A stretch of DNA of 64,000 nt. Source: Candidatus Amesbacteria bacterium (GTDB lineage Bacteria; Patescibacteriota; Microgenomatia; CAZETR01; Amesbacteraceae). The notes below the pieces were generated by a model that made no database searches, was not told the DNA's origin, and worked only from the letters and a program-made list of their open reading frames with translations. The DNA lies in the NCBI GenBank assembly GCA_963736875.1, contig CAVTQH010000003.1:129756-193755 (forward strand), read 5' to 3'. This document shows, in pieces, positions 7,440-64,000 of the stretch. The position numbers and the translations under genes are program-made. The first letter of the stretch is position 1, and every line of letters begins with the position of its first letter.

Positions 7440-7443
7440 AGAG

Positions 7444-7597: not shown

Positions 7598-7652
7598 CGC
7601 ACTACTACTATGCTAATGGCCCACTGAGACAGATATTATTTTACCAGAGGGG

Positions 7653-9722: not shown

Positions 9723-9767
9723 ATGTATAAAGGGAAAAAAAAGCTATGTCAAGCAGGAAAATGAAAC

Positions 9768-9799: not shown

Positions 9800-9815
9800 A
9801 TGATAACATGAGTGC

Positions 9816-10517: not shown

Positions 10518-10556
10518 CGACCCGCTGTAGTCGCTTAGAACGGCAGATTTCCGACT

Positions 10557-27192: not shown

Positions 27193-27396
27193 TTAAGCAG
27201 TTTTTGGAGTCATTCCCAGAAGCCAGAGGATGGCTTCTTTTTTATAGCGGCGGTCACCCCGGGAGTTGATGCGGATGGGAACCAGTTTGCCGCGCTTGCC
27301 CCAGCGTTTGATGGTGAGAGTGGAGACTCGGAGAACCTGGGCGACTTCACGGACAGTGAGAAGATCCGGCAGTGAATCGAGGTTCAGAGATGTCAT
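27193..27396 (-). CDS. Small HTH DNA-binding protein, AlpA/excisionase (MerR-superfamily HTH_17)-like
   Basis: 'LLTVREVAQVLRVSTLTIKRWGKRGKLVPIRINSRGDRRYKKEAILWL' fits the AlpA/Xis pattern of HTH followed by a beta wing. Confidence 0.7.
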   Translation of the reverse strand: MTSLNLDSLPDLLTVREVAQVLRVSTLTIKRWGKRGKLVPIRINSRGDRRYKKEAILWLLGMTPKTA

Positions 27397-27454: not shown

Positions 27455-30400
27455 TTACGGGGTTCCGGTGACCGGGGCGATGCGGACAGCTCCTTCGTTA
27501 TAGACACCGCTGACTTGCTCCTGAGTAAGAGGGTAATTCCATATCTTTACCTCGTCGATTTTGCCTGAAAAATGTTGGTCCGCGCCAAGGTTATACGACC
27601 CAATACATAAAGAAGCTACTTCATCGCTCGGGTCACTTGTTTCTGATGCAGAATAAACCTGATTTCCATTAATATAGATTCTGAAAGTATCATTTATCGT
27701 ATCGAATACACAAACCGCATGGTACCAGGTTCCGGTTATACCATTAAATGAAGTTACATCGTGGTCATGATACGTACTCCCACCGATTCCAAATCCACAG
27801 TTTAGGTCGTCGGCGTCATTTATCTCTAAAAAGTAGCCATCGGCGCTGTCGCTTTTATTGACTAGTGTATCCCAGTTTCCGCTGCCCGGCCAGGCGTTTG
27901 CGTTAAACCATGCCGCAAGAGAGAATGAGCCGGTAAATTGTTGAGGATAATCATCAAAGATTTCTACATAATCCCCGGTACCGTCAAATGTTCCGCCATT
28001 ATTTATTTTTCCGGTTGCGGTTGTCGCATCTCCGCCCCTGACACCATGCATATTGTTTCCTGAAGAGTCTTTTACCTCTTCGGATGTCCCATCCCAAGAG
28101 CTCTCATCAAGTTTCCACCAGCCTACAGGTTTTCCCCGGTTATAGTCCCAGGCGATCTGGGCCGGGGTGCGGACATAATTGTATAACCTGGCTTCGTCGA
28201 TCTTACCTTTGACGGGATAAGATGCGTCACTGAATTCAATACCTCCGCTTCTGTTTTCCATGGCAACATATGTACCGACGTTGTCATCCAGATTGTCGAC
28301 TCTGATGCCGTCAAGATATATTTTGATGCCGCCGGCAGTACCGCTGCCGTCGTAGGTGGCTTCCACATGGTGCCATTGGTTAAGGGTGAAGGTGCCGGCG
28401 TCGAATCTGCGGCCGATCCTGGCACCGGCGCTGTAATCGTATAGAAAAAATTTGAGAGTGGGGGTACTGCTGATCTGGAGAGTGTATTCATTACCTTTAT
28501 CAACCATAATTTGGGCGCTGGCGCTTTGACTGAAGTTTACCCAGACAGAGACAGAAAAGGGGGAATCAGTGGTGCCGTTGCCGAAGGTGTGAAGATCGGT
28601 GTCGGAGGCTTGGGAACGATCATCTGTACCGTTGAAGTTGCCGGCAGAGCCAAATATTCCACTGGCCCAGTGGACAGGTCCGGTACCGTAAATAGTGGTG
28701 GGATAGTTATTACCCGAGCTGTCGATGTAGGAGGTGCCGGTATTTTCATCGAACTTCCATTCTCCGACCGGGGGGTTGCAGGTGCCGGTGTCTCCGGGAG
28801 GACAATATGAGCGGGCAGCGGAGGTCATGGTGGCAGAAGAGGAGGCGGTGGAAAGAACTCCCATAGAGGCGGCAAAGCCCTGGTTATAAAGAAGTTTTAC
28901 CTGGTCGGCTGTCAGGGTGGTGTTGAAGACTTTGACTTCGTCGATCAAACCGGGAAAACCGCCGGTCAAGGGAGTGTAGCTTCTGATACCGATAGTCATG
29001 TCAGCAGTTTCACTGATGGAGCCGGTATGGGTGCCGGTGGTTTCAAGAGCACCGTTGATGTACAGATTACCCTGTGAGGAATCGGAAGTGCAAGTTACAT
29101 GGTACCACTGCCCGGTGCTGATGGTGGTGGTGGAGTTCAGATTCTGGCCGTTGTAGCCGCATCTGACGGTATCATCACTGTAGACGTTAAGAAACCAGCC
29201 GTCGGAAGCGCTGTCCTGGTTGCTGACAAGATATTCAATGGCACCACTGTCGGTATCCCTTCTGATCCAGGCAGAGACGGTGAAGTCGTTGGTTGACAGC
29301 AGGTTCCATTCACCGGTAGCAACTGCATAATCATCGGTACCGGTGGTGCTTAATTTCATGGATTTTCCGTACTTGCCGTCGTTTGACCAGGAGGGGCAGG
29401 CATCATCAGCTCCCGTGGGGCAGGTGGTGCCTGTTCCGGCCAAATTAGCACCAGGGGTAGCCGTACCGGAGTTGTTGGCCGTATCACCATAACCTTCATC
29501 AAACTTGTACCAGAAAAGGGAACTGCCTACCGGACTTCCGGGGGCCGGATGGCCGGCATTCATGTCTTCGATTATCTGGGCGGGAGTGCGGGCGTAGTTA
29601 TAGATTTTGGCATCATCCATTTGACCAACATATTCATATCCTGATCCATCCCCCCCCAAGGCAAAGGTGTAAGTGGAATCGAAGGATGTGTTTATTAAAT
29701 CAGTCTCATCGGATGATGCCAGAAGGACTCCGTCTAAGTATATTTTTCCGGTATCTGTTGTGGCTGACCGTGACAAAGTGACCGTTAAGTAATGCCATAA
29801 TCCGTTCCATGTAACTATGGAGGGAGAGTAATAATAATCTCTCTGAGTGCCGTTGCCGGTCTGAAAAGCTATTCTGGTGTTTGAATAATCCCACCACAAC
29901 CAATAACCGGGGTCCGTCGCGCCACTGGCTGCGCCTTTGTATATTATTGTCATAGGGTGCGTAGTGGATGGATTGGGTTTTACCCATAAACCCAAAGTAA
30001 AACTTCCGGTAGAAGCATCAAGTCCACCATTATTTAAAGTCCATGTTCCGCCGGGATCTGTTTTTTCACCGTGTCCTCCTGTACTTGAATAGTCCACACC
30101 TCCTCCATATTTACCAGGTTTCCATTTGTAACCGGTCAAGGTTAAGTTATTACCTTTACCGCTGGTGTCATAAGCGGTACTACCGGTGTTTTCATCAAGT
30201 TTCCATTCAGCGATCGGTCCCGGAGCCCAGTTATAGAGCTGTCGGACTTCAGAGGGGGTAAAGGCACGGTTGTACAGACGGACTTCATCCAGAGTGCCGT
30301 CGTAATAATTAGAACCAACCCGGCCGATATAAAACTGATCGGCGTTGATAGCGGTATCGGATGTGACGGTAACCAAAGACCAGGTATTGGCAGAAAGGGT

Positions 30401-33400
30401 GGTACCGGCAACACCGTTAACATAGATTTGGGGGTTGGTGAAACCGTTGGCTGAAATAACACCCGAAGAGTTGGACTGGATGTTTGCGGAGGAGGAAAGA
30501 TTAATATAATAATTTGTAAGAGCATCGGGATTGGTCCAGAAAGAAACAGATTTAATGCTGTCCATTCCCGATACAGATACATCAGTAACCCGTACTTCAG
30601 CCTGATAAGCATATACGGTTGAACCTATTATGTTTAAAGCGCCGAAACTTACGGATAAAGATTGTAATTTACTCCATGTCCATCCGCCACTTGGTTCATC
30701 AAGTGTAGTGTATCCAGTCCACTGACAAGTAGTTCCGGCGGCATTCACATATCCCAATGAATCTCCACCATCATACGCAGATGCTCTTACTGATCCTGAA
30801 GTTCCCAAAGCAGAACGGCAGCCATAAAGTCGTAATTCTACCTGAGATGTTGGGCATCCGTTTGCAGGGGCGTTTGTTCCGCCTCCAGTTAAAGCACCAG
30901 GTTCCGACCCATTATTACAACTTGCACTCGTAGACGTTAAACTATCAAAAGCATCTGCATCATTACTCCAATCAGATTCTGTATCGGTGGGACCGCTATC
31001 GCTGGCATTAAAGTAGTAATCATGAGTCGAACCATCACAAGTACTAAGATATTGCGAAGATCCGGGAACATGTTCCGAACCGTTTGCGAATTTTCCGGAC
31101 GCAATTGCAACAGTATTGTTATCTGCCAGTGAATTGCCATTTCCCGAATAGTCAGTTCTTGATAAACCCGAAGTTGTTTCATCCATCTTCCAGTAACCAA
31201 CCAAACCATTGGAAAGGTAACTGTTGTCGGGGCCAAAGCGGGCAGAGGACCCGTCGGATGAACCGCGGGAGGTATAAATAGCTTTGATTTGATCAGCGGT
31301 TAACTGAGCGGCGTTGAAGCGGACTTCGTCCATGAATCCGGTAAGATAACCGGTTGAGTAATTTCCCAAAACCATTGATGAACCGCTTACGGTTGTTCCG
31401 GTTGTGACCGCCACATGCTGCCATTGGTTTGCAGTCAGGACCGGGGAAATTGTTGCCCGGCCGTTGATGTAAAAAGCGGGCGAGGTAAAACCTGTTGCGG
31501 ACAGATTTCCGGAGCCGTCTGTTTCTATCCTTGTACTTCCGCCAAGGTCTGCAAGAGCGATACTGGCAATTGTATTCGGTCTGATCCACATGGATACCGT
31601 TTTTATATTCATGTTCGATGCCAATGTAACTTTTGCAGCGGAGCCTTCAAAATAAAGACATTTACCCGATACACACATATCTTCTGTCTGCCAAGTGGGA
31701 AGGCCGCTACCTGCGAGTGTTCCGTTGATGGCATTTGAACCTGCGTTGGCCGAATCTGCGGTGGTTGTACCGTAGCCCTCATCCATCGGCCAGTAGGCAT
31801 TGGTTGCCGCGGGAGTCGGAGTCGGGGTCGGCTCTGTTTCTTCACCGGTGGGTAAACCGGCGTAAGGAACCCGGGAGGAATCGGCCGTTGGAGAGGTTGA
31901 AGGTGCCCCGGAATCGGTATAATCAACGTGGATTCTTCCGTTGCCTCCGTCACCCCCGCCGGCAATGTTTGTACCTTCGCCTCCGTCACCCCCGCCAAGA
32001 GAGGTTACCAAACTCGTTCCCAGTGTATCGGTGATTGTTTTAATAAGGACCGAACCTCCGGCACCGCCTCCTCCGTTACCGCCGTGCGTTGTTGCCTGAG
32101 TTGTCGTTTGACCCGTTGCCTGAATATAACCGTCATTGGTAGAATCCAGGGTAACCGTATTGGCACTGATATATACAATTCCTCCGCCGGTTCCTCCGTT
32201 TGTGCCGTCGGCACCATCATCTCCTGCTCCTCCACCTCCGCCGCCGGAGCCAAAAAAGATAGTGGTCAGCGCTGCCGAGCCATATGTTCCTCCTCCTCCG
32301 CCACCGGCACCGGTTCCGTTTACGTTGGCAACTCCGCCTCCTCCGGCGCCCTGGGTAGATCCGCTTCCTACACTGCCACCACCGCCGGTTCCGTTACCAC
32401 AGCCCGAGCCGCCCGAACCGGCGCTTCCGGCATTACCACCTGCCATACCACCCGATGCGCCTCCCGATGTGTCCAGACACGCACCACCCCCCCCGCCGCC
32501 GGCAGTTCCCGCACTGCCTCCGGTGCCGCCGGTACCGCCGGTGCCGCCGGGAGGGCTGGGATCATCACTATTACTGCCTCCTCCGCCGCCGCCGCCTGCA
32601 TATCCTCCCCCTCCTCCTCCGGCACCGCCTCCGGTGGAGTTATCATCCGATCCGGCTGAACCTCCTCCTCCGCCTGCACCGGTAGCTACCCCGTCGGCAG
32701 CTCCGCCGGGATTACTTCCCGCTGCCCCGTCGCCGGCTCTTCCGCCGCCCCGGGATTCACCGCCGCTAGATCCGTTACCTCCGCGGCCTGATGCTGTTCC
32801 GTCGTAACTTTCTCCTGTATTTCCGCCTATTTCTGTCAGAGTACCGGCAGTTCCCCCCGCATATCCCAAGGAATTTGCGTTGATGGTGCAGGCTGTTGCA
32901 GTACAACCCGAGGCGTTAACGGTACCTGTTGCCCGAAACGCCATCACACCACCTCTGAAATTAGTTGTTCCGTCCCATGCCGACGGGGTGAAGTCGGTTC
33001 CGGAGTTGGAGAGAGTAACACCGGTATAATTGGGAATCCTTTGGACCATTATTTTATCAGCCGTGCCGTTGTATCCGTTTACGAGGTTTCTGTCCAAAGT
33101 CAGGGTGGCGGTGGAGATGGTGGTAATCCGTCTGGTTTCGTATTGCCCGGCATTTGTTCCGCGTAAATTAATAATTAAAATTTCGTCTCCGACAGCCAGA
33201 CAGCCGGAACTCGGGGTGGATGAAAGGACAATCTGATTTGTTCCGGATGACCGGTTTTCTGTAACGGAGTAATTGACCGCGTCGCCGCCGTCGGAACATG
33301 ATCTTCCGGAAATAGAAGTAGCGGTATTAATGTTGGTATCGGCGGTTATACTTATCGAGCCATCCCTGCCGCTTCCGATGTTTATGCCCGTGGGATTGGA

Positions 33401-33832
33401 AGAGAGGGTGGTTGTTCCGTCTGTAGCTCCGGAATTGCCGTAATACATATACATGGTTGTGGCACCGGCGGGCAGGCTTGTGTAAGTAACCCAGACCACT
33501 GTTTTTCCTGATGAAGCGCTGCTGACACAATATTCCTCGTAGTAATCAAGAACAGTGGTGCCGTCGCTTTTGGTAAAGATCAGGTCATCACAGTCTGACT
33601 GGAGTTTGGTGTCATTGATCAAGGTATAAGTATCCACGGCGACCATGATGGTATAAGTGGCTGATGAGCTGTTATTGGTAATGGAAATTGCCTGACGATA
33701 AAGCCAGCTTGAGTTATACCAGGCGGCTCTGACTTTGGAAGTACGGAAGAAGATTAGAGAAATCAGGGCAAAGACCAGAACCAGAGAAGATGTGCGGGAA
33801 AGCAGGCGGATTAGTTGTTTACGTTTTTTCAT
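27455..33832 (-). CDS. Giant secreted/anchored surface protein (2125 aa) with a DUF2341-like N-terminus, multiple LamG/Laminin_G_3 (concanavalin-like) domains and a ~300-aa Gly-rich low-complexity region
   Basis: N-terminal TM/signal followed by 'AAWYNSSWLYRQAISITN'. There are repeated 'DEVR(I/L)YN(R/Y)A.T..E(V/I)' Laminin_G_3 hallmark motifs. The shared linker 'PAQIIEDMNAGHPAPGSPVGS' is also found in the 2032- and 2904-aa proteins. The Gly-rich block spans ~32000-32800. Confidence 0.8.
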   Translation of the reverse strand: MKKRKQLIRLLSRTSSLVLVFALISLIFFRTSKVRAAWYNSSWLYRQAISITNNSSSATYTIMVAVDTYTLINDTKLQSDCDDLIFTKSDGTTVLDYYEEYCVSSASSGKTVVWVTYTSLPAGATTMYMYYGNSGATDGTTTLSSNPTGINIGSGRDGSISITADTNINTATSISGRSCSDGGDAVNYSVTENRSSGTNQIVLSSTPSSGCLAVGDEILIINLRGTNAGQYETRRITTISTATLTLDRNLVNGYNGTADKIMVQRIPNYTGVTLSNSGTDFTPSAWDGTTNFRGGVMAFRATGTVNASGCTATACTINANSLGYAGGTAGTLTEIGGNTGESYDGTASGRGGNGSSGGESRGGGRAGDGAAGSNPGGAADGVATGAGGGGGSAGSDDNSTGGGAGGGGGGYAGGGGGGGSNSDDPSPPGGTGGTGGTGGSAGTAGGGGGGACLDTSGGASGGMAGGNAGSAGSGGSGCGNGTGGGGSVGSGSTQGAGGGGVANVNGTGAGGGGGGTYGSAALTTIFFGSGGGGGGAGDDGADGTNGGTGGGIVYISANTVTLDSTNDGYIQATGQTTTQATTHGGNGGGGAGGSVLIKTITDTLGTSLVTSLGGGDGGEGTNIAGGGDGGNGRIHVDYTDSGAPSTSPTADSSRVPYAGLPTGEETEPTPTPTPAATNAYWPMDEGYGTTTADSANAGSNAINGTLAGSGLPTWQTEDMCVSGKCLYFEGSAAKVTLASNMNIKTVSMWIRPNTIASIALADLGGSTRIETDGSGNLSATGFTSPAFYINGRATISPVLTANQWQHVAVTTGTTVSGSSMVLGNYSTGYLTGFMDEVRFNAAQLTADQIKAIYTSRGSSDGSSARFGPDNSYLSNGLVGYWKMDETTSGLSRTDYSGNGNSLADNNTVAIASGKFANGSEHVPGSSQYLSTCDGSTHDYYFNASDSGPTDTESDWSNDADAFDSLTSTSASCNNGSEPGALTGGGTNAPANGCPTSQVELRLYGCRSALGTSGSVRASAYDGGDSLGYVNAAGTTCQWTGYTTLDEPSGGWTWSKLQSLSVSFGALNIIGSTVYAYQAEVRVTDVSVSGMDSIKSVSFWTNPDALTNYYINLSSSANIQSNSSGVISANGFTNPQIYVNGVAGTTLSANTWSLVTVTSDTAINADQFYIGRVGSNYYDGTLDEVRLYNRAFTPSEVRQLYNWAPGPIAEWKLDENTGSTAYDTSGKGNNLTLTGYKWKPGKYGGGVDYSSTGGHGEKTDPGGTWTLNNGGLDASTGSFTLGLWVKPNPSTTHPMTIIYKGAASGATDPGYWLWWDYSNTRIAFQTGNGTQRDYYYSPSIVTWNGLWHYLTVTLSRSATTDTGKIYLDGVLLASSDETDLINTSFDSTYTFALGGDGSGYEYVGQMDDAKIYNYARTPAQIIEDMNAGHPAPGSPVGSSLFWYKFDEGYGDTANNSGTATPGANLAGTGTTCPTGADDACPSWSNDGKYGKSMKLSTTGTDDYAVATGEWNLLSTNDFTVSAWIRRDTDSGAIEYLVSNQDSASDGWFLNVYSDDTVRCGYNGQNLNSTTTISTGQWYHVTCTSDSSQGNLYINGALETTGTHTGSISETADMTIGIRSYTPLTGGFPGLIDEVKVFNTTLTADQVKLLYNQGFAASMGVLSTASSSATMTSAARSYCPPGDTGTCNPPVGEWKFDENTGTSYIDSSGNNYPTTIYGTGPVHWASGIFGSAGNFNGTDDRSQASDTDLHTFGNGTTDSPFSVSVWVNFSQSASAQIMVDKGNEYTLQISSTPTLKFFLYDYSAGARIGRRFDAGTFTLNQWHHVEATYDGSGTAGGIKIYLDGIRVDNLDDNVGTYVAMENRSGGIEFSDASYPVKGKIDEARLYNYVRTPAQIAWDYNRGKPVGWWKLDESSWDGTSEEVKDSSGNNMHGVRGGDATTATGKINNGGTFDGTGDYVEIFDDYPQQFTGSFSLAAWFNANAWPGSGNWDTLVNKSDSADGYFLEINDADDLNCGFGIGGSTYHDHDVTSFNGITGTWYHAVCVFDTINDTFRIYINGNQVYSASETSDPSDEVASLCIGSYNLGADQHFSGKIDEVKIWNYPLTQEQVSGVYNEGAVRIAPVTGTP

Positions 33833-34554
33833 AGTATTTCATTTTCCAACTGGTTTAATACTTCGAATTTTAAAGACTTGCGGATTGTCTGATACTTGTC
33901 TGAGGGTAACAGTGTATTAAGGTCCTCATTTATAGCAGTGCCGGTAACCTTTTGTTCGATAAAGGATTTAAGAGCAACCAGAAATTCTTTTACCGGAAGA
34001 CCGGTTCTTTCTTTGATGATACCTGTATCGTATTTGTACCCGCTGATAAAAAAGTGGTGGATGTCGTAAATATCCCTGCCGGCGATTGAACCATGTTTTT
34101 CGTATCTGTCCAGAACAGCTACCAACTTGTGAGCGAACATGGTTTCTACCGTTTGACAAATCAGGTAACGGTCTATTTCGGATAAATAAGAGGGGAGATG
34201 TTTATCAGACAGAAACGGGTGATTGACGGCGTCGATCTTTATGCTATTTCTTTGATTGTTTTGGGCTTCATATCGGACTACATATTGGATCGAATTGATA
34301 CTTTGGTCTTTAATTTCCAGGTTGAGTGTTTTAAACGTTTTTTCCAGATGGTTTTTTATAGTTTTAATATTTGCTTCTTTTTGAATATCGAAATCAAGGT
34401 CGACAGAAAACCTGTCCAGCCGGCCAAGCATGGAAGCGCAGGTACCACCTTTAAAAATAAGAGAATTAGTTAAAATGTTATTGTCGGCAATTTCGATTAA
34501 CAGACGGTAGAGCTGACCCCGATGGATGGCGTCTGTGGCTTTGGGCAGTATCAT
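33829..34554 (-). CDS. abiEii: AbiEii/AbiGii-family nucleotidyltransferase toxin (DUF1814)
   Basis: 'LIFKGGTCASMLGRLDRFSVDLDFD' matches the AbiEii KGGTAL...RFSEDLDF motif. Its stop overlaps the start of the 2125-aa gene by 4 nt. A sampled 60-mer is ~38% GC. Confidence 0.8.
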   Translation of the reverse strand: MILPKATDAIHRGQLYRLLIEIADNNILTNSLIFKGGTCASMLGRLDRFSVDLDFDIQKEANIKTIKNHLEKTFKTLNLEIKDQSINSIQYVVRYEAQNNQRNSIKIDAVNHPFLSDKHLPSYLSEIDRYLICQTVETMFAHKLVAVLDRYEKHGSIAGRDIYDIHHFFISGYKYDTGIIKERTGLPVKEFLVALKSFIEQKVTGTAINEDLNTLLPSDKYQTIRKSLKFEVLNQLENEIL

Positions 34555-35084
34555 ATATATCCAATCTCCTTTCTTAATCGGGTAATCTTATCCCAGTCAA
34601 TTTTCGTGGTGTTGTCGAAGTGGTATCGGGGGTTGAAATAAAGCATATCGGCAATTGCCCTGTCGGTGGTAGCCTCAAGATATTTTCCGTTATTCACAAC
34701 TCCCGATGTTTGAAATAAGTATTTGTCTCCCAGCTGGCGGCTCAGATATGAGTAATCACCGATTTTAATCTGACGGTTTTTGGTGGAGCAAAAAGTTATA
34801 GGTTCAATTTTTTGAAAAATGACGCCATTTTTTGCCAGGACGGTTTCAGTACTGAGATAGGAGTACTGATGCAGTGCCGTTGTGCCCAATTCTACCGGGT
34901 CAAGTTTTTCAAAAGGCACGACAGAATAAAAACCCCGGTAAATCGGAATCAGAACGCCTTTTTTGACATACCGCCCCAGCGCAGAATACAGAGTTCTTTT
35001 ATTTGATATGCTCCAAAGCAGTTCCAGGTCTTTGGTATGAAATAACCTGCGATCCAGCTTGAGAAGTATATCTATCCTATTCAT
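34551..35084 (-). CDS. abiEi: AbiEi-family antitoxin / transcriptional regulator
   Basis: N-terminal wHTH-like 'RTLYSALGRYVKKGVLIPIYRGFYSV' fits the AbiEi_4 'rlvk.G.l.rv.rGvY' pattern. It overlaps abiEii by 4 nt (ATGA). Confidence 0.7.
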   Translation of the reverse strand: MNRIDILLKLDRRLFHTKDLELLWSISNKRTLYSALGRYVKKGVLIPIYRGFYSVVPFEKLDPVELGTTALHQYSYLSTETVLAKNGVIFQKIEPITFCSTKNRQIKIGDYSYLSRQLGDKYLFQTSGVVNNGKYLEATTDRAIADMLYFNPRYHFDNTTKIDWDKITRLRKEIGYI

Positions 35085-35112
35085 ATATGCCTAGTATAAT
35101 ATAACATAGTTA

Positions 35113-50520: not shown

Positions 50521-50531
50521 AGACGACGGGG

Positions 50532-51227
50532 TTAATTAATCACCCACCAATTAATATTGATATCCTGCCTGGCGACCTTATCCATAGAGATAATGAAGCG
50601 ACCGGAATCGGTGGCGGTAGCAGCCAGGGCTACAGGGAAATCGGGCGTGACGAAAATGGCAGAACCGGTGGATACGGCATCGGTTTGGATTGTCAGCTGC
50701 TGGGTGCCGGTGGGCAGGACAGCTCTGCCGATGGAAGCTGAAGAAGTTGCCACGCCGGAATCCGTACCCAGGACTTTGACTTTTTCAGTTTTAACTTCTT
50801 TGGCAATCAGGGTTCCGGTAATGGTCAGGTCTCCGGAATCAGTAAGGATGGCGGCGCCGTTTTGCAGCGACAGGTAGCCGATGAGGGATGACAAGTCTCC
50901 GAGAATGTCATCAAACTTAAGAAGCCCCACCCGGAGAATTCCGGCAATGGTGGTATCGGAAAGAACTGACGGAGCGGTGACGGTCAGGCGACCGGAGATG
51001 GTGGCGTCTCCCAAAAGGTCCAGACTTGAAGCGGAGACGGGAGAAAGAGCAGCTGAAACCGAAGCCATATTCATACTTGCCAACTGGGCGGAAATGGAGG
51101 CAATTTGAGAATCGAGAAGCTGACAAGGAAATATTGCAGGCCGCGGTGCCGATGTCAGAGGCGATGATCTGACCTTGGACAGCCAGATTGCCGGTGGTGT
51201 CGAAAGCCAGGGCATTGACCGGATCAA
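50532..51227 (-). CDS. C-terminal fragment ORF of the mega-gene (frameshifted relative to 50917..53337)
   Basis: The first ~45 aa look out of frame. Protein-like sequence starts at 'LLDSQIASISAQLASMNMASV'. It overlaps the preceding ORF by ~310 nt. Confidence 0.4.
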   Translation of the reverse strand: MIRSMPWLSTPPAIWLSKVRSSPLTSAPRPAIFPCQLLDSQIASISAQLASMNMASVSAALSPVSASSLDLLGDATISGRLTVTAPSVLSDTTIAGILRVGLLKFDDILGDLSSLIGYLSLQNGAAILTDSGDLTITGTLIAKEVKTEKVKVLGTDSGVATSSASIGRAVLPTGTQQLTIQTDAVSTGSAIFVTPDFPVALAATATDSGRFIISMDKVARQDININWWVIN

Positions 51228-56300: not shown

Positions 56301-59300
56301 AAAGCGGAATTTCCGCCCTGGCCCAACTGAACGATGTTGCCGGTGGTGATGGCGGAGGCGGTAGCGGTGAAGACGTTACCGGTGGCGGTACCCGAAGTCA
56401 GGTTAAGAAGACCTCCGGTTCCGGTGTAGGCGCCGGCGGCGGAGATCTGGACCAGGCCGTTGGTTAAAGCTGTGGCTCCCGAAGGACCGGTGACTTTGAT
56501 TCCGTAGCCGGTGCCGTTCAGGCCGGTCGTTGAGATATTCAAAGCGCCGCCGGTGCCGGTGGTCAGGGAGTTGGCGGTCAGGGCTTCAAGGACACCGTTA
56601 TTGGTGGTCATGGTAGAGGAGACATCGAGAAGGTTACCGGTCAGGGTAGTGCCGGTGTTGGTGATTTTGAGGCCGGTGCCGGAGGTTACAGAGTTGGCAA
56701 TAATGGCGACGGCATTGTTGGTAGTAGCGGGAGTCCCGATGGCGGTGAAGTAGGCAGAAGCGGTAGCGGTATCACCGACAAACAAATCCTGGGTGGTATT
56801 TAAAGAGGCCAGACCGGTATTGGTGTTAACCAGCTGCCACTTACTGGTACCGGTGCCTCCCCCGCACGAAGACCAGGAGAAAACTCCGGCACCGTTACTG
56901 GACAGACACTGGGTTCCGGAGGAATCAACATTGGGCAGGGTCCAGATTACGGATGTGGTGATGGCATCGGGACCTTTGAACCCGACGTATTCCGAACCGC
57001 CGGCAGCCAGTTCCCGGAATCTTAATTCAGAGGTGTTGCCGGCTCCGGTATTGTACGGGTATAAATTGAGGTCGCCGTTGTTACCCAGAACGAAACGGGT
57101 GGAACCGGAGACGGAAGCTGTAAGAATATTCTGGTCAGTGTTGGTAATATTGAATATAGCCATTGCTTTACCTGAGACGGATCCGTAAACATTTAATATT
57201 CCTTCGGCCGGTGCACTACCATAGAGCACCTTGCCACTATCAGTAATGGTCATGGCAGCTGTCTTGGCACCGTTCTGGTTGGTGTACATGATCAGACTTC
57301 CCTGATCCTGATAGATTGATCCGTCACTCATAATCAGTGACCCGCCGGCGTATACCGCACCCGAGAGGTACAAATCCTTGAAACGGGAAGAGGAGGTGGC
57401 ACCGATATCGACTGCGGAATCGGTGGCAGGAAGCACGGCACCCGTACCCAAGTCAAAAACAATGTTGCCGGAGTTATATGTTTTAAGAGTCAGGTTATTG
57501 GATTCGTAATTATCGCCAACCTCGATGGTAAAGGGAGCTTTGGTTTTAATATTGGATGATGTTTGGTTAGAAAAGTTTAGATCGTAGGCCATGGTGACGT
57601 CGCCGGCGTTATTGAAGGCTGTAGGCAAGTTGGATATAACCTGTGAAGTGGAAACGGAGAAGAGTGATGAACCGTTGTCGGTGATGTTTAGGAGATTACC
57701 GGTGGTATCACCGTTGGCGCCGATGTTTATCCGGAACAAGTCTCCGGAAGCGGTGGCGGCGGATGAGGGAGACCAGTCAAGGGAAAGGAGACGGCCGGAG
57801 GTAAGGGCAGTGCCGGTGCCGGAGATGCTGAAAGCGTTGCCTGTCGTCAGGGAATTGACATTCAGAGTCATGGCGTTTCCGGTCGAGGCTGCCAGACCGG
57901 CAACGTTTAAGAAAGCCGAAGCGGTAGCGGTAGCACCGATATTTAAGTCATCGGTGACGTATGAAGGAGCCAGTGAGCCGTCGGTTCTCTGCCAGAAGTC
58001 ATTGGCTGAAAGACCCAGAGTGCCTCCGGCATCCGGCAGAGTCCAGATGCGGGCAGCTGTCAGGTCAGCGGTGGTTAAAGTACCGGTGTAGGCGGTTCCG
58101 GCTGTGGCGGAGGGAGAAATCTTGAAAGTGTCAGCTGTGGCTGTACCGGAATAGAGGAAGGTATTACCGGTTAAGCCCTCCACCTGGAATCTGGCAGAGC
58201 CGGTAGCAGTACCGCCGATGAAGAGATCCTGAATATCGGCATTTAACGGAGCAAGACCGGTATCGCTGTTGACTAACTGCCAGAAGTTAGTGCCGGAAGG
58301 AGTACCCCAGCTCAAAGTTCCGGAGCCGTTATTCATCAGATACTGGGAACCGGATGACTGGCCGGTAGGCAATGTCATAGAGTAAGTGGTGCCGGTAACA
58401 CCTGAAACCAAAGTAACGGTATTGGCGTTGGAAGCGTTTTGAAGTACCAGACTACCTGCATTGGCGGAGGCAGTACCTAAAGTCAAGCTGCCCGTCCTAT
58501 CAAGTTTCATCACGGTGGCACCTGAAGCTGAAGCTGTCAGGATATTTTGGTCACCGGTTTCGTTTAGCTGGACTAAAGCCTGGCCAACTTTAGCTCCGGA
58601 AATAGTGAGCAGACCGGCTGGGGTAACGGCAGTACCGATGCCGACTCCGCCGGTACCTACGTCCAACAGGATATTGCCGGCGTTGTAGGTTCTCAAGGTC
58701 AGGTTGTTGCTTTCGTGGCTTTCACCAACGTTAATAGTAAACGGACCCAGGGATTCGATCTGGGAAGATGTTTGATTAGTCATGTTGATGTCGTAGCTGA
58801 AGGAGACATCACCGGCGGCGGTAAAGACGGCGGGGATGTTGGAGGTCATCTGGGAAGTGGAGACGGAGAAGAGTGAGGAACCGTTGTCGGTGATGTTTAG
58901 GAGATTGCCCGTGGTATCACCGTTGACCCCGATGTTAATCCTGAACAAGTCTCCGGAAGCGGTAGCGGGGGATGAAGGGGACCAGTCAAGGGAAAAGAGC
59001 CGGCCGGAGGTAAGAGCAGTGCCGGTGCCGGAGATGCTGAAAGCGTTGCCTGTCGTCAGGGAATTGACATTCAGAGTCATGGCGTTGCCGGTTGTGGCTG
59101 CCAGACCGGCAACATTCAGGAAAGCGGAGGCGGTAGCGGTGGCTCCGACATTCAAGTCATCAGTGACAAATGAAGGAGCCAGTGAGCCGTCGGTTCTCTG
59201 CCAGAAGTCATTGGCTGAAAGTCCCAGAGTGCCTCCGGCATCCGGCAGAGTCCAGATGCGGGCAGCTGTCAGGTCAGCGGTGGTTAAAGTACCGGTGTAG

Positions 59301-62137
59301 GCGGTTCCGGCTGTGGCGGAGGGAGAAATCTTGAAAGTGTCAGCTGTGGCAGTCCCTGATATCAAGCTGACATCACCGGTACTGCTTACAGTAAAGCGGG
59401 TGGAGCCGGAAAGAGATGCGGTAAGGATATCCTGGGCTTCGGTCTGGTTAATGATGGCTGCTGCCATTCCCCGGTCAAGTGAACCAGCCAGAGAAATCTT
59501 AGCGGAGGCGGTAGCGGTGGCTCCGAGGTTAACGTCGGCAGTCAGGGAGAAAGGAGACAGCGAGCCTGTGGCAGATAGTTGCCAATAATTTGCTCCCCCG
59601 CTTTGCACTGTTAAATCAACCCAGGTATCCGTAGCTTCACAGTAGTAGATATTAGTGCCACTGCTATACATTTCTCCGACCGTACAGTTGGCAGGAGTTG
59701 TTCCCGGGTCCAGGTAGAGGATGCCTCCATCGGCTGCCGCATTTACTCCGAAGTAGCCAAGATTTATGGAACCATTACCAAAACCTATTCTTCCGTCTGT
59801 CTGATTACTGATAGTCTCGGCATTTTCCAAAACAATTTCTGTCGTTAAATCAGCGGCGTCAAATGTAATCCCTGTTCCGATTGTACCGGCAGAGAAGTTA
59901 ATACCATTGGTCAGCGTCCCCGCATTTTGAGCAATGTTTATGGCATTGGTGGTTGTTCCGCCGGTTCCGTTTCTGTATATATATAATCCGTTGGTCTGTG
60001 TACCTCCTGTATTTGTCATGAAGAAGTCTGCAGCATTTCCGGTACCTGCATTTGTCAGTTCGATCACACTTCCGGTGCAGTCGGCATTTGCTCCGCAGTT
60101 TTGAGCGAGAGATACTAAGTTGGAGGAATCCGAGATGCTGCCTGCGGTTTCGGTTAGGCTGGATGCAATTTTTAGTACATCACCATCTACTACAGTAGAA
60201 CCACTGGCATGAGTATTAGTTATTGATCGGTTTAGTTCTGCAAGATTTACTGAATCGGTAAATGCGGTACCAGACATACTGTTTGAGGTGAGATCGTTTA
60301 AGATTAATAAGTCCATAGAGTTTGTCTGGCCTGACGCTCCGGTATCGTATGAACCGATGTTTATACCTCTGCCACTGCCAATGCCATCCATATTTATTAA
60401 TATTCCTGTGCCCGGTCCTGCTGCTTGGGTAATTTCCAGGACAGCGGCTGATGATAATACGTCAGATTGGCTAAGTTTTAATAAATTCCCGGTCGAATTA
60501 TTTGAACCGTCATTTGCCTGTGTTATTTCCATAACATTCGAAGTTCTGCCACCACTTGCCAAGTTTGAAGTGATAGTAAAAGTGCCTGCGTTTGCAGGAT
60601 TGTAAGCCATATCGTAATCAGAAAGAGCTTCAACGCTGAATATTGCAGATGAAGTGGCCGTTCCCCCTATCGCCAGATCAGCCGTGGTCGAGAATGGCGC
60701 CAGGACCCCGGCGTTTAACTGCCAGAAACCGAACTGGCCGGATGAAGGACCGTAACAGACGGAGCCTGACAGACAGACGGTGCCTGTCGCATCCGGGAAA
60801 GTGATGATGTGGGAGGAAGTCTGGGCGGAAGTCAGAGTCAGAGTGTTGGTGGTACCCAGGACCAGCTGGTTGCTTGCCGCTGCAAAAGTGCCGGAGAGAA
60901 GAGAAGCCGCGCCGGTGTTGGCGATGTTGTATGTGGTGGCTCCGCCGAAACTGACACCCTGGCTGAACTGGGTGTAGTTGGCGACGCCGGTCAAAGTATT
61001 GGTGTTGGGCAGAGTGACGGTGCCGGCCGTCGTCACATTACCCGTCCCGGGAGCGACGGAGAAGTTACTGCCGCCGACGGTTAAATTGGCCGTGGTCACA
61101 TCCAGGCCGTTGGTGGCATCGACGTTGCCGGCAAAAGTAGCCAGGCCGGTTTCGGATATCGTCAACCCCGTGGTCCAGGCATCCTGGCCGCTTTTATACT
61201 GCAGAGTCAAAGGACCCATGTCGGGCCTGATGACGTTGCCGGCGGTGAAGATCCCGGCCACGGAAGCGGTGCCGGATGTCAGCAGATTGCCGGTGTCGGC
61301 ATATACATGGAAGAGAGCGGAAGCGGTGGCCGTTCCCCCTATCGCCAGATCAGCCGTGGTCGAGAATGGCGCCAGGACCCCGGCGTTTAACTGCCAGAAA
61401 CCGAACTGGCCGGATGAAGGACCGTAACAGACGGAGCCTGACAGACAGACGGTGCCTGTCGCATCCGGGAAAGTGATGATGTGGGAGGAAGTCTGGGCGG
61501 AAGTCAGAGTCAGAGTGTTGGTGGTACCCAGGACCAGCTGGTTGCTTGCCGCTGCAAAAGTGCCGGAGAGAAGAGAAGCCGCGCCGGTGTTGGCGATGTT
61601 GTATGTGGTGGCTCCGCCGAAACTGACACCCTGGCTGAACTGGGTGTAGTTGGCGACGCCGGTCAAAGTATTGGTGTTGGGCAGAGTGACGGTGCCGGCC
61701 GTCGTCACATTACCCGTCCCGGGAGCGACGGAGAAGTTACTGCCGCCGACGGTTAAATTGGCCGTGGTCACATCCAGGCCGTTGGTGGCATCGACGTTGC
61801 CGGCAAAAGTAGCCAGGCCGGTTTCGGATATCGTCAACCCCGTGGTCCAGGCATCCTGGCCGCTTTTATACTGCAGAGTCAAAGGACCCATGTCGGGCCT
61901 GATGACGTTGCCGGCGGTGAAGATCCCGGCCACGGAAGCGGTGCCGGATGTCAGCAGATTGCCGGTGTCGGCATATACATGGAAGAGAGCGGAGGCGGTG
62001 GCCGTTCCCCCTATGGCCAGATCAGCCGTGGTCGAGAAAGGCGCCAGGACGCCGGCGTTTAACTGCCAGAAACCGAACTGGCCGGATGAAGGACCGTAAC
62101 AGACGGAGCCTGACAGACAGACGGTGCCGGTCGGCAT
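53156..62137 (-). CDS. Mega-gene main segment (2993 aa; the real gene continues upstream past 64000 and downstream to ~50532). It is a GC-rich beta-helix/tail-fibre-like surface protein
   Basis: The N-terminus is the 224-aa tandem repeat, present ~2.5 times here. The middle has 'GSEYVGFKGPDAITTSVIWTLPNVDSSGTQCLSSNGAGVFSWSSCGGG' modules and 'GVGIGTAVTPAGLLTISG' tail-fibre-like motifs. The C-terminal ~330 aa are parallel beta-helix (PbH1) repeats such as 'ITGNVFDGYGTGGTAITVTGNNTVISGNSIYDIDTTSGAIDIYDSDNFSITGNTIS'. A sampled 60-mer is ~63% GC. Confidence 0.75.
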   Translation of the reverse strand: MPTGTVCLSGSVCYGPSSGQFGFWQLNAGVLAPFSTTADLAIGGTATASALFHVYADTGNLLTSGTASVAGIFTAGNVIRPDMGPLTLQYKSGQDAWTTGLTISETGLATFAGNVDATNGLDVTTANLTVGGSNFSVAPGTGNVTTAGTVTLPNTNTLTGVANYTQFSQGVSFGGATTYNIANTGAASLLSGTFAAASNQLVLGTTNTLTLTSAQTSSHIITFPDATGTVCLSGSVCYGPSSGQFGFWQLNAGVLAPFSTTADLAIGGTATASALFHVYADTGNLLTSGTASVAGIFTAGNVIRPDMGPLTLQYKSGQDAWTTGLTISETGLATFAGNVDATNGLDVTTANLTVGGSNFSVAPGTGNVTTAGTVTLPNTNTLTGVANYTQFSQGVSFGGATTYNIANTGAASLLSGTFAAASNQLVLGTTNTLTLTSAQTSSHIITFPDATGTVCLSGSVCYGPSSGQFGFWQLNAGVLAPFSTTADLAIGGTATSSAIFSVEALSDYDMAYNPANAGTFTITSNLASGGRTSNVMEITQANDGSNNSTGNLLKLSQSDVLSSAAVLEITQAAGPGTGILINMDGIGSGRGINIGSYDTGASGQTNSMDLLILNDLTSNSMSGTAFTDSVNLAELNRSITNTHASGSTVVDGDVLKIASSLTETAGSISDSSNLVSLAQNCGANADCTGSVIELTNAGTGNAADFFMTNTGGTQTNGLYIYRNGTGGTTTNAINIAQNAGTLTNGINFSAGTIGTGITFDAADLTTEIVLENAETISNQTDGRIGFGNGSINLGYFGVNAAADGGILYLDPGTTPANCTVGEMYSSGTNIYYCEATDTWVDLTVQSGGANYWQLSATGSLSPFSLTADVNLGATATASAKISLAGSLDRGMAAAIINQTEAQDILTASLSGSTRFTVSSTGDVSLISGTATADTFKISPSATAGTAYTGTLTTADLTAARIWTLPDAGGTLGLSANDFWQRTDGSLAPSFVTDDLNVGATATASAFLNVAGLAATTGNAMTLNVNSLTTGNAFSISGTGTALTSGRLFSLDWSPSSPATASGDLFRINIGVNGDTTGNLLNITDNGSSLFSVSTSQMTSNIPAVFTAAGDVSFSYDINMTNQTSSQIESLGPFTINVGESHESNNLTLRTYNAGNILLDVGTGGVGIGTAVTPAGLLTISGAKVGQALVQLNETGDQNILTASASGATVMKLDRTGSLTLGTASANAGSLVLQNASNANTVTLVSGVTGTTYSMTLPTGQSSGSQYLMNNGSGTLSWGTPSGTNFWQLVNSDTGLAPLNADIQDLFIGGTATGSARFQVEGLTGNTFLYSGTATADTFKISPSATAGTAYTGTLTTADLTAARIWTLPDAGGTLGLSANDFWQRTDGSLAPSYVTDDLNIGATATASAFLNVAGLAASTGNAMTLNVNSLTTGNAFSISGTGTALTSGRLLSLDWSPSSAATASGDLFRINIGANGDTTGNLLNITDNGSSLFSVSTSQVISNLPTAFNNAGDVTMAYDLNFSNQTSSNIKTKAPFTIEVGDNYESNNLTLKTYNSGNIVFDLGTGAVLPATDSAVDIGATSSSRFKDLYLSGAVYAGGSLIMSDGSIYQDQGSLIMYTNQNGAKTAAMTITDSGKVLYGSAPAEGILNVYGSVSGKAMAIFNITNTDQNILTASVSGSTRFVLGNNGDLNLYPYNTGAGNTSELRFRELAAGGSEYVGFKGPDAITTSVIWTLPNVDSSGTQCLSSNGAGVFSWSSCGGGTGTSKWQLVNTNTGLASLNTTQDLFVGDTATASAYFTAIGTPATTNNAVAIIANSVTSGTGLKITNTGTTLTGNLLDVSSTMTTNNGVLEALTANSLTTGTGGALNISTTGLNGTGYGIKVTGPSGATALTNGLVQISAAGAYTGTGGLLNLTSGTATGNVFTATASAITTGNIVQLGQGGNSAFSGNVVFADIDNTGAGGNGFSGNFLKFNKANNTLFTVDSNGDINMYPYGTATGNTSELRFRELAAGGSEYVGFKGPDAITTSVIWTLPNVDSSGTQCLSSNGAGVFSWSSCGGGTGTSKWQLVNTNTGLASLNTTQDLFVGDTATASAYFTAIGTPATTNNAVSIIASSLTTGSGLRITGSAATMATGGELVDLVLGANTVGAGVTVTSTGVYTGTGAADGLINVVANSLTTGDGSKLSFTGLTSGTGMEIIGGTSMTTNGELLDLNMGAATAGNGATITTSGIYTGTGLLNLAANSATGGNLLAVGSSGTGLTGSLLSLTTGSTAAFTNGAFYLNASGAHTGSAALLSSGTLTGNILTATASAITTGNIVQLGQGGNSAFSGNVLFADIDNTGAGGNGFSGNFLKFNKANNTLFTVDSNGDINMYPYHTDSGDTAELRFRELAAGGSEYVGFKGPDAITTSRIWTLPNVDSTGTQCLSSNGSGVLSWSACSSGSGSSNWQETGTGALTQRNIMEDVLLGATATSSARVVLPGSLTRGKAAVIINQLSTDNMDLLTASAAGTTRFRLTYAGELVLNASSYLNFGTTAGASGYGIRDNSGVMQLRNSAGNWTNIASESAAFERAKYDRVVDANGGGTDTTVAAAITNAPTGGSIFISPGTYSENITVTKALKFYGAGSDRTSISGGSGSATVSLSDGIDDIEFHDMTITNAGITQNIIDSLYSSGEHVHLVFENLKITNGLTGMNLYEIFDSKIINSLFSGQSDHSIWTSTASTGNIISGNTFENIGNGVGSEQIIILGFLSVVSNNYFIYPTAGVKAVSTTGTGGRDTITGNVFDGYGTGGTAITVTGNNTVISGNSIYDIDTTSGAIDIYDSDNFSITGNTISSVGDDDGIYINDNSNTHGTITGNTITGCAGYAIDLGGSTNSNMYVSGNNLLGNTAGTIENNTGNGNIVEYNNSGSFDLAANNPGKAALILNGTGAQNLFAASASGATRFVLGNNGDINMYPYNTGAGNTAELQIPGTGCRRFRIRRFQRSRCHHHLQDLDSSQC
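55800..57650. repeat. Intragenic tandem duplication of a ~894-nt unit, 2 copies
   Basis: Antisense ORFs 55899.. and 56793.. begin with identical 60-aa peptides ('MVFKEARPVLVLTSCHLLVPVPPPHEDQEKTPAPLLDRHWVPEESTLGRVQITDVVMASGPLNPTYSEPPAASSRNLNSEVLP'). Long identical nucleotide runs include 'atattaatatcgccgttactgtcgacggtgaacaaggtgttgttggctttgttgaatttcaggaagttacctgaaaa'. Confidence 0.8.
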
Positions 62138-64000
62138 CCGGGAAAGTGATGATGTGGGAGGAAGTCTGGGCGGAAGTCAGAGTCAGAGTGTTGGTGGTAC
62201 CCAGGACCAGCTGGTTGGTGGCCGGCTGAAAAGTGCCGGAGAGAAGGTTGGCCGCGCCGGTGTTGGCGATGTTGTATGTGGTGGCTCCGCCGAAACTGAC
62301 ACCCTGGCTGAACTGGGTGTAGTTGGCGACGCCGGTCAAAGTATTGGTGTTGGGCAGAGTGACGGTGCCGGCCGTCGTCACATTACCCGTCCCGGGAGCG
62401 ACGGAGAAGTTACTGCCGCCGACGGTTAAATTGGCCGTGGTCACATCCAGGCCGTTGGTGGCATCGACGTTGCCGGCAAAAGTGGCCAGGCCGGTTTCGC
62501 ATATCGTCAACCCCGTGGTCCAGGCATCCTGGCCGCTTTTATACTGCAGAGTCAAAGGACCCATGTCGGGCCTGATGACATTGCCGGCGGTGAAGATTCC
62601 GGCCACGGAAGCGGTGCCGGATGTCAGGAGATTGCCGGTGTCGGCATATACATGGAAGAGAGCGGAGGCGGTGGCCGTTCCCCCTATCGCCAGATCAGCC
62701 GTGGTCGAGAAAGGCGCCAGGACGCCGGCGTTTAACTGCCAGAAACCGAACTGGCCGGATGAAGGACCGTAACAGACGGAGCCTGACAGACAGACGGTGC
62801 CGGTCGCATCCGGGAAAGTGATGATGTGGGAGGAAGTCTGGGCGGAAGTCAGAGTCAGAGTGTTGGTGGTACCCAGGACCAGCTGGTTGGTGGCCGGTGA
62901 AAAGTGCCGGAGAGAAGGTTGGCCGCGCCGGTGTTGGCGATGTTGTAGGTGGTGGCTCCGCCGAAACTGACACCCTGGCTGAACTGGGTGTAGTTGGCGA
63001 CGCCGGTCAAAGTCTTGGTGTTGGGCAGAGTAACGGTGCCGGCCGTCGTCACATTACCCGTCCCGGGAGCGACGGAGAAGTTACTGCCGCCGACGGTTAA
63101 ATTGGCCGTGGTCACATCCAGGCCGTTGGTGGCATCGACGTTGCCGGCAAAAGTGGCCAGGCCGGTTTCGCCTATGGTCAACCCCGTGGTCCAGGCATCC
63201 TGGCCGCTTTTATACTGCAGAGTCAAAGGACCCATGTCGGGCCTGATGACATTGCCGGCGGTGAAGATTCCGGCCACGGAAGCGGTGCCGGATGTCAGGA
63301 GGTTGCCGGTGTCGGCATATACATGGAAGAGAGCGGAGGCGGTGGCCGTTCCCCCTATGGCCAGATCCAGAGTGGTCGAGAAAGGCGCCAGGATGCCGTC
63401 GTTTAACTGCCAGAAACCGAACTGGCCGGATGAAGGACCGTAACAGACGGAGCCCGACAGACAGACGGTGCCGGTGGCATCCGGGAAAGTGATGATGTGG
63501 GAGGAAGTCTGGGCGGAAGTCAGAGTCAGAGTGTTGGTGGTACCCAGGACCAGCTGGTTGGTGGCCGGGTGAAAAGTGCCGGAGAGAAGGTTGGCCGCTC
63601 CGGTATTGGCGATGTTGTAGGTGGTGGCTCCGCCGAAACCGACGCCGTTACTGAACTGGGTGTAGCCGGCGACGCCGGTCAAAGTCTGGGTGTTGGGCAG
63701 AGTAATGGTGCCGGCCGTCGTCACATTACCGGTCCCGGGAGCGACACTGAAGTTACTGCCGCCGACGGTTAAATTGGCCGTGGTCACATCCAGGCCGTTG
63801 GTGGCGTCGACGTTGCCGGCGAAAGTGGCCAGGCCGGTTTCACTGATGGTTAACCCCGTGGTCCAGGCATCAAGGCCGCTTTTATACTGCAGAGTCAAAG
63901 GACCCATGTCGGGCCGGATGACATTGCCGGCGGTGAAGATTCCGGCCACGGAAGCGGTGCCGGATGTCAGGAGGTTGCCGGTGTCGGCATATACATGGAA
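60640..64000. repeat. Tandem array of >=5 copies of a 672-nt (224-codon) repeat, continuing beyond the window edge
   Basis: Antisense ORFs recur at 60978, 61650, 62323 and 62994 (spacing 672/673/671) and at 60780/61452. The encoded peptides are near-identical. Confidence 0.9.
62022..64000 (-). pseudogene. Upstream continuation of the mega-gene through the 672-nt repeat array, split into ORFs 62022..62606 and 62855..63949 by a +1 indel at ~62140 and a -1 indel at ~62896. It runs off the window
   Basis: All fragments encode the same 224-aa unit 'AGIFTAGNVIRPDMGPLTLQYKSG(Q/L)DAWTTGLTI.ETGLATFAGNVDATNGLDVTTANLTVGGSNFSVAPGTGNVTTAGT'. 'gtcggcatccggg' contrasts with 'gtcgcatccggg' in the other copies, and 'ggccggtgaaaag' contrasts with 'ggccggctgaaaag'. 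Confidence 0.5.

Follow-up and report, generated by a model that had tools for sequence, protein, structure and literature searches.

Host attachment or adhesion is already the standard hypothesis for the giant LamG/DUF2341 proteins of candidate phyla radiation (CPR) and DPANN organisms (PMC11809585, PMC11310336, PMC4858521, PMC8080830). The closest described examples are the DUF2341/LamG giants of Patescibacteria reported in the Patescibacterium danicum paper (PMC11809585), which begin with a signal peptide followed by DUF2341. Here we analyze a 64,000-nt stretch of contig CAVTQH010000003.1 (herein the window), in which a minus-strand coding block at positions 27455 to 64000 encodes three giants of that family (G1, G2, and G3) and one giant fiber-like protein (G4). 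G1 to G3 have the same type of start and invite the same hypothesis of adhesion or host interaction; they differ from the P. danicum proteins in being three paralogs in a row, one of which carries an array of repeats resembling carbohydrate-binding modules (CBMs). PMC11809585 describes no coupling of LamG giants to an upstream fiber gene. We propose that the locus is probably one copy of a conserved Patescibacteria surface cassette, composed of an upstream gene for a giant fiber and downstream genes for secreted multi-lectin giants.

The pre-neck appendage gp12 of phage phi29 is a homotrimeric receptor-binding spike (PMC6542822). G4 shares with it (PDB: 3suc, 3gqh) a right-handed β-helix and a domain of the autochaperone type; in contrast to gp12, G4 is more than five times longer, chromosomal, and outside any virion, its domain is duplicated with ∼330 residues behind it, and at the N terminus its relatives have an HTH_17 domain plus a membrane helix. 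Scans of the window ORFs turned up no phage structural genes, and the cassette is chromosomal in many species, so that G4 does not have the setting of a virion part. Cell-encoded, phage-fiber-like adhesins that recognize another cell are known from predatory bacteria such as Bdellovibrio, in the form of its mosaic adhesive trimer fibers; G4 would share this concept and differs from them in its presumed anchor and in its genetic partner, the LamG giants.

Huge multidomain surface proteins of reduced genomes, with a proposed role in host attachment, have been described in Vampirococcus (PMC8080830) and, as SPEARE, in nanohaloarchaea (PMC9563170); these have other domain sets (WD40, PKD, integrin, and fibronectin, among others), and no cassette of DUF2341/LamG genes plus a fiber gene has been reported for them. 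LamG/DUF2341 has also been proposed as the adhesive at a filament tip, in the haloarchaeal Tat-fimbria subunit TafC (PMC11821415) and in archaeal DUF2341 proteins of pilus loci (PMC4858521). The present giants do not belong to TafC, as they reach only 131 to 243 bits against the NF052521 cut-off of 410 and match only profile positions ∼183 through 365 (the LamG half). The Pfam scan of the window left out a few open reading frames (ORFs) of at least 150 aa that overlap longer ORFs; among the ORFs scanned there is no pilin, PilB/C/M, or TadC, only ComEA and ComEC, and the window thus lacks the context of a pilus-tip protein.

Results

Organization and Conservation of the Locus

The minus-strand block fills 57% of the window and is almost fully coding, which bears out the original prediction of a same-strand locus of giant genes. 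Read from high to low coordinates, it comprises the giant fiber gene G4 (50532 to 64000, based on a frame map, with the N terminus beyond the window end), the DUF2341/LamG giants G3 (41208 to 50520) and G2 (35113 to 41211; intact, 2032 aa), the antitoxin AbiEi (34551 to 35084), the nucleotidyltransferase toxin AbiEii (33829 to 34554), and the DUF2341/LamG giant G1 (27455 to 33832; intact, 2125 aa). Directly downstream of G1 lies a 67-aa MerR/HTH_17 gene (27193 to 27396, minus strand), whose membership in the locus is uncertain. Both intact giants have the lengths first predicted for them.

To place this arrangement among relatives, one genome per species of the Genome Taxonomy Database was scanned with an alignment of the G4 C-terminal region, which gave 175 relatives; 79 loci were kept. 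A same-strand ORF with at least two LamG modules lies downstream of the G4-type gene in 50 of the 66 species-level Patescibacteria loci that have at least 5 kb of downstream sequence. It begins a median of ∼1 kb past the matched part, which is just beyond the end of the fiber gene; upstream of the G4-type gene, a multi-LamG ORF was found in only 1 of 42 loci. Many species share this order of a fiber gene followed by a LamG giant, and the arrangement is directional.

Individual loci show how the arrangement varies. The G4-type gene is followed by four more same-strand giant genes in L003 and L004 (three with LamG, two of these also with DUF2341, and one of 1647 aa without a Pfam match), directly by a 1570-aa LamG giant in L006, and by a HigB/HigA-like pair and then a LamG giant in L005; L002 has three DUF2341/LamG giants in tandem. 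Genes of other kinds stand among them: a Gp49/HTH_3 toxin–antitoxin-like pair within the giant-gene array of L005 (9558 to 10241) and dockerin-domain genes after the LamG giant of L006 (18103 to 22116). An Avd-like PF05635 gene is wedged into the array of L003 (22446 to 22805), so that a diversity-generating retroelement may still occur elsewhere in the family. In the window, no reverse-transcriptase match occurs among the scanned ORFs, and the repeat families are tandem protein repeats rather than template/variable pairs. Many metagenome-assembled genome records (third-party annotation) that carry the cassette, at L010, L014, L015, L018 through L020, and other loci are titled “uncultured Gammaproteobacteria” or “Pseudomonadales”; these look like wrong taxon labels, since the L010 and L019 contigs carry a LeuRS 61 to 63% identical to that of the window.

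Complete G4-type genes are single ORFs of 2400 to 5900 aa, and in 13 of 17 a domain of the HTH_17/MerR type and then a hydrophobic helix come first (L015, L024, L028, L029, L032, L036, L050 through L052, L055, L059, L078, and L083). A cytoplasmic-type HTH_17/MerR domain joined to a membrane helix is an odd fusion for a giant extracellular fiber. The free-standing 67-aa gene after G1 encodes the same type of domain as these starts.

The genes within the locus are closely spaced. AbiEi (PADLOC E = 2.1e-30; NCBIfam NF047376 E = 3e-11) and AbiEii (Pfam PF08843 E = 7e-22; PADLOC E = 4.8e-25) are adjacent, share a 4-nt overlap, and form an AbiE type IV toxin–antitoxin/abortive-infection pair. The pair is an insertion between G2 and G1, and the four giants are therefore not consecutive, as had been supposed. 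Gaps of 11 nt and 28 nt separate G4 from G3 and G2 from AbiEi, respectively, and G3 and G2 are ∼0 to 9 nt apart: They meet in a TTGA overlap or, if G2 starts at the ATG at 41199 that aligns with the start of G3 (probably its real start), are separated by ∼9 nt. The 4-nt ATGA overlaps first described are those at AbiEi/AbiEii and AbiEii/G1, and so both involve the inserted pair. Promoter and terminator scans of the locus performed no better than on shuffled sequence; a single operon is plausible, with spacing as the argument for it. Plus-strand GC skew is positive nearly everywhere in the window (0.1 to 0.37), including G4 although it is minus-coded, and is close to zero across G1 to G3.

The Giant Fiber Protein G4

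As assembled, G4 consists of five ORF pieces in three frames (62858 to 64000, 62025 to 63053, 53159 to 62176, 50920 to 53379, and 50535 to 51287). Four 1-nt corrections turn these into 4488 aa without an internal stop, N-terminally incomplete at the window end, and the intact L003 homolog spans the same pieces; the giant of more than 4500 aa originally proposed thus reads through once corrected and is fragmented in the contig as it stands. It contains a tandem array of 672-nt (224-aa) repeats (60650 to 64000) with at least five copies, 90 to 100% identical, that runs off the window. Successive spacings are 672/673/671/672 by repeat search and copy alignment; Tandem Repeats Finder reports no 672-nt array, its longest period being 500 nt. 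A right-handed β-helix follows at 53438 to 53890 (Pfam PF13229, E = 1.7e-7 and 4.9e-9; 31.5 to 36.4 bits against a cut-off of 25.9).

Beyond the β-helix, G4 has a first phi29-gp12-like autochaperone domain at 51778 to 52236, matched by PF11962 (Peptidase_G2, the “IMC autoproteolytic cleavage” domain) with E = 1.2e-14 and 54.7 bits against a cut-off of 25, yet only over profile positions 32 through 99 of 228. In its “SADFAEYF” motif, D388 and E391 are invariant in 40 homologs. A second, duplicated gp12-like domain (“TNYAEYF...”) lies at 51148 to 51585, whereas most relatives have one copy. Some 330 conserved residues follow the gp12-like domain, up to the C terminus ...FVTP...NWWVIN.

The AlphaFold2 model of an 806-aa piece of G4 has a mean predicted local distance difference test (pLDDT) score of 55, with residues ∼380 through 520 confident at 89 to 97. 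Foldseek searches with these residues retrieve pre-mature phi29 gp12 (3suc; E = 2.9e-5) and the gp12 C-terminal fragment (3gqh_A; E = 7.4e-5, template modeling score 0.50), and among predicted structures the model has 30 matches to tailed-phage proteins at E ≤ 1e-3. A PDB sequence search with the 806-aa piece gave no match, and PHROGs gave one weak match, to a “minor tail protein.” By sequence and fold, the G4 domain is of the phi29 gp12 autochaperone type, which upholds the earlier description of G4 as tail-fiber-like.

Such a domain next to a β-helix, with tailed-phage proteins as structural neighbors, raises the question of whether the locus is a prophage or tailocin remnant whose giants are viral receptor-binding proteins; CPR phages with LamG proteins have been reported (PMC11310336), and Abi systems and an integrase-like fragment lie nearby. 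We consider this origin very improbable. No capsid, terminase, portal, or tail match was found by Pfam among the window ORFs scanned, the PHROGs search added only the single weak match, and the flanks consist of tRNA synthetases, ComEA/ComEC, and UppS. Moreover, 50 species-level genomes have this pairing of fiber gene and LamG giant on the chromosome, and an HTH domain and a membrane helix stand at the N terminus of G4 relatives.

The LamG Giants G1 to G3

A Pfam scan of the giants confirms the LamG, DUF2341, and β-helix content expected from the letters alone. LamG_3 (Laminin_G_3) matches 5 to 6 stretches in each of G1 to G3 (E = 1e-106 to 1e-147), where a locally built profile resolves six LamG modules per protein; DUF2341 (PF10102) occurs once in G1 and twice in each of G2 and G3. 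G2 is ordered as signal peptide, DUF2341, LamG, DUF2341, and five more LamG modules, and G1 as signal peptide, DUF2341, glycine-rich region, and six LamG modules. The glycine-rich, low-complexity stretch of G1 (residues ∼330 through 640; window 31900 to 32900) weakly resembles the N-terminal portion of AgmC, a gliding-motility protein, with a score (E = 7e-7) that falls far short of the cut-off.

In each of the three proteins, a single hydrophobic segment at the N terminus has AxA as its end (KVRA|A, NVSA|G, and TVSA|G), with the DUF2341 motif, (A/G)W(W/Y)..., directly after it; homologs likewise start with a signal peptide followed by DUF2341. None of G1 to G4 shows an LPXTG-like motif or a hydrophobic 19-mer at the C terminus, and sortase anchoring is accordingly not indicated. 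Because the AxA-ending segment is present and both the LPXTG signal and a C-terminal helix are absent, G1 to G3 look as if they are secreted via a cleavable Sec signal peptide rather than held by the N-terminal anchor that had been proposed.

G1 to G3 are paralogs. They are collinear over the C-terminal ∼1100 aa at 33 to 41% identity, with one further G2/G3 block at 48%, and their DNA identity in the best blocks is 65 to 80%. G1 is the most divergent; its GC content is 0.48 to 0.54 compared with 0.43 in G2 and the first half of G3. The LamG module cores share only 25 to 35% identity even between positional counterparts, except for the first two G2/G3 pairs (57% and 66%). In contrast to these cores, the linkers RTPAQIIEDMNAGHPAPGSPVGS, YCPPGDT.TCNPP..EWKFDENTG, and RTPAQIAWDYN, which are present along with the other motifs quoted in the original prediction, are identical or nearly so as protein. 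Their codons differ at many synonymous sites, including serine codons from the AGT and TCN families. The linkers would therefore be kept by strong purifying selection and not by recent gene conversion, and the exchange of modules once suggested for these paralogs is supported neither by this pattern nor by their collinearity. A tree of LamG modules has a few nonpositional groupings (G2_Lc with G3_Le; G1_L5 with G3_Lf); we dismissed it as evidence for shuffling because it is too poorly resolved at 25 to 35% identity.

G3 additionally carries an array of repeats of ∼178 to 214 aa (46426 to 49968, minus strand; residues ∼185 through 1365) that has no Pfam match. An AlphaFold model built from nine homologous segments contains two confident β-sandwiches (pLDDT 75 to 90), and the predicted fold of the repeats is CBM6/CBM36-like; a profile of the repeat matches 1128 cluster representatives among 1.84 billion proteins. 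Between its second DUF2341 and the next LamG module, G3 has an insert of ∼215 aa with no domain assigned (residues ∼1760 through 1975; window 44600 to 45240), and G2 carries a different insert at the same place.

The LamG giants have 138 homologs at E ≤ 1e-10, named as Patescibacteria, Parcubacteria, and Komeilibacteria; full-length homologs (E = 0 to 1e-100) carry DUF2341 or LamG names, and the nearest non-self relative is 36 to 39% identical. G2 and G3 are themselves identical to the database proteins P0001 and P0005. A PDB sequence search with the N-terminal 304 aa of G2 gave no match.

CBM6/36-like and LamG folds are typical of polysaccharide-binding modules in glycan-degrading enzymes. 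The giants could accordingly form an envelope layer of the cell itself or capture polysaccharides for nutrition instead of acting as host adhesins, and the dockerin-domain genes behind the LamG giant of L006, the glycosyltransferase and O-antigen-ligase-like genes within the window, and the lack of a known host for the lineage would all suit such a role. Pfam and NCBIfam scans, however, revealed no catalytic glycoside hydrolase or lyase domain in any giant, and coupling to a receptor-binding fiber of phage type suggests recognition of a cell surface. On balance, we regard a structural or nutritional role as unlikely but not negligible.

Single-Base Insertions and Deletions

Five single-base indels interrupt G3 and G4 (all positions are on the minus-strand genes). 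In G4, one base is missing at 62897 (frameshift A; TTTTCA-CCGG against TTTTCACCCGG or TTTTCAGCCGG in sister copies) and one C is extra at 62133 (frameshift B; GGATGC[C]GACCGG), which together place ∼254 codons in another frame. A further extra C occurs at 53254 (frameshift C; GAACTT[C]AGATTCCGGGAACTGG), where three sister copies read GAATTAAGATTCCGGGAACTGG (ELRFREL); at this site the present copy has GAACTTCAGATTCCGG and the three sister copies have GAATTAAGATTCCGG. Frameshift D is one extra base at ∼51130 (within 51100 to 51160), with the conserved C terminus downstream of it. In G3, one extra T at 41877 (ACCATC[T]ACTCCC) leaves ORFs of 2904 aa (41806 to 50520) and 251 aa (41208 to 41963). 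Without this T, G3 reads as 3103 aa, the predicted giant of ∼3100 aa that the contig itself holds only in two parts, and the repaired junction GTITPGASGNTSVGSC agrees with GTITPNTGRSVGSC in G2.

A sixth indel lies in the duplicated gene at 411 to 2601. Five of the six are insertions, none is in a long homopolymer, and for each of the six the contig holds a second, repeated or paralogous version of the affected sequence. Every shifted segment is open up to the next indel, and the repaired G3 and G4 are free of stops and align end to end with intact homologs. Because of this, the indels, if real, must be very recent; otherwise they are consensus errors that were left uncorrected in repeats. As a sign of diversification, in the earlier reading, the frameshifts are ambiguous: Very recent inactivation and consensus errors both fit them. 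In 76 of 79 related loci, the part that corresponds to the final 1100 aa of G4 is in a single frame. Programmed frameshifting and phase variation were rejected because the five sites have no slippery heptamers and no simple-sequence tracts. In L006, a JGI contig, gene calling likewise renders the fiber gene region (2443 to 13219) as a series of short, overlapping ORFs, and fragmentation of repeat-rich fiber genes may for this reason be a recurrent problem of assembly or gene calling.

Taken at face value, the same indels could mean that the locus is a decaying relic in which G3 and G4 are true pseudogenes and only G1, G2, and the toxin–antitoxin pair are functional. The single frame of nearly all relatives, the position of the indels outside long homopolymers, the splitting of one duplicate by the sixth indel, and a possible orphan N-terminal module beside an IS200-like transposase are compatible with decay. 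The repaired 4488-aa and 3103-aa frames, however, have gathered no stops, and repeated or paralogous sequence is precisely where consensus polishing fails; the predominance of insertions points the same way. In addition, the single-copy genes examined look intact, and TyrRS is 100% identical over a 1775-bp contig of the independent Logan assembly from ERR12040022. We therefore view decay as a serious but doubtful explanation. Two of the four giants are single genes only after sequence editing, and claims of diversification or pseudogenization call for read-level support.

Near-identical 672-nt repeats, the indels, and a GC content that spans 0.43 to 0.61 across the locus might also be taken as signs of an assembly artifact in which dispersed repeats were joined. 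This is hardly credible: Mis-joining of G1 to G3 is unlikely because their identity (33 to 41% as protein, 65 to 80% as DNA in the best blocks) is too low for it, and the same gene order has been assembled independently in dozens of genomes. Doubt is confined to the copy number of the 672-nt array and to the indels.

Source Organism and Flanking Region

The left 27 kb of the window encode LeuRS, TyrRS, ProRS, ComEA, ComEC, UppS, and glycosyltransferases. LeuRS has no relative above 69% identity, and its named relatives (55 to 58%) are from WWE3, Shapirobacteria, Nealsonbacteria, and “Patescibacteria group”; for G4, the best relatives belong to Microgenomates (Amesbacteria, Woesebacteria, and Gottesmanbacteria). 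By these relatives, the source can be placed as a Patescibacteria (CPR) bacterium near Microgenomates/WWE3, and the small-genome origin first suspected agrees with the CPR-type flanks.

Several features of this flank deserve mention. A second abortive-infection pair lies between ProRS and UppS (21947 to 23663, plus strand; AbiLi, PADLOC E = 3e-76, and AbiLii, E = 3e-13). A direct duplication of 2191 nt with 98.4% identity occupies 411 to 2601 and 5250 to 7439 (plus strand); the intact copy encodes the C-terminal part of a secreted protein of 1085 aa that is rich in cysteine and has no Pfam match, and the other is split by a single inserted A near 1361. A 237-aa ORF (10557 to 11270, minus strand) comprises Phage_int_SAM_1, a proline-rich linker, and a C-terminal membrane helix right at its end, and resembles the N-terminal module of some giants of the G4 family (P0189, P0197, and L080). 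As it adjoins an IS200-like transposase gene (9816 to 10517, plus strand), it may be an orphaned start of a G4-family gene. The “Competence” and “Lactamase_B” domains of ComEC are on two ORFs (14667 to 15647 and 15635 to 16369, plus strand) in different frames with a 13-nt overlap; the gene is either naturally split or frameshifted as well. Two adjacent tRNA-Ala genes with anticodons GGC and CGC are found at 7444 to 7622 (minus strand).

Discussion

In the cassette that we propose, G4 would form a trimer, assisted by its gp12-like domain, and an N-terminal helix like that of intact relatives would fix it in the membrane. The anchorless lectin giants would be displayed on or near the G4 fiber, where they could bind glycans on a partner cell or on surfaces. 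The most economical function would be to bind glycans of another cell, and on this sequence-based argument a role in host attachment is plausible.

Several points weigh against this proposal. The link between the fiber and the LamG giants is suggested solely by the adjacency of their genes, and the upstream synteny control is weak because the fiber gene fills most of the upstream flank. LamG and CBM folds serve functions other than adhesion too. The confident part of the AlphaFold2 model is only ∼140 of 806 residues, and release of the chaperone in the manner of gp12 is uncertain because the domain is internal and duplicated, with ∼330 residues after it. Finally, the contig as it stands would yield G4 only in fragments and G3 without its last LamG module.

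A more elaborate form of the cassette, which we consider improbable, is a two-part surface apparatus of Microgenomates/WWE3-type Patescibacteria in which an anchored, gp12-matured trimer displays the lectins and a cytoplasmic HTH_17 (MerR/excisionase-type) domain makes the fiber a ToxR-like one-component transmembrane sensor. Touching a partner cell would in that case act directly on DNA binding or transcription. Here the gene order (50 of 66 loci) and the HTH–helix–fiber layout (13 of 17 ORFs) are observed, and the complex and its signaling are speculation.

The proteins of the locus are already in public databases under domain-level names, and the locus is of a known but uncharacterized kind. 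Three aspects appear to be undescribed in the literature searched: the directional pairing of fiber and LamG giant, the HTH–helix–fiber–gp12-like layout, and the CBM-like repeat family; the search also returned no paper joining “intramolecular chaperone” with Patescibacteria and only nine in which DUF2341 is mentioned.

To our knowledge, no host has been identified for CPR bacteria of the Microgenomates type, and giant lectin-like proteins are routinely named as attachment candidates without any defined system. With the cassette that we favor for this locus and the synteny survey, there is now a concrete, widespread set of genes whose parts are testable: a gp12-like, presumably self-assembling fiber; in relatives, its HTH domain and membrane-helix anchor; LamG arrays that look secreted and have linkers under strong constraint; and a CBM-like repeat family without a Pfam model.

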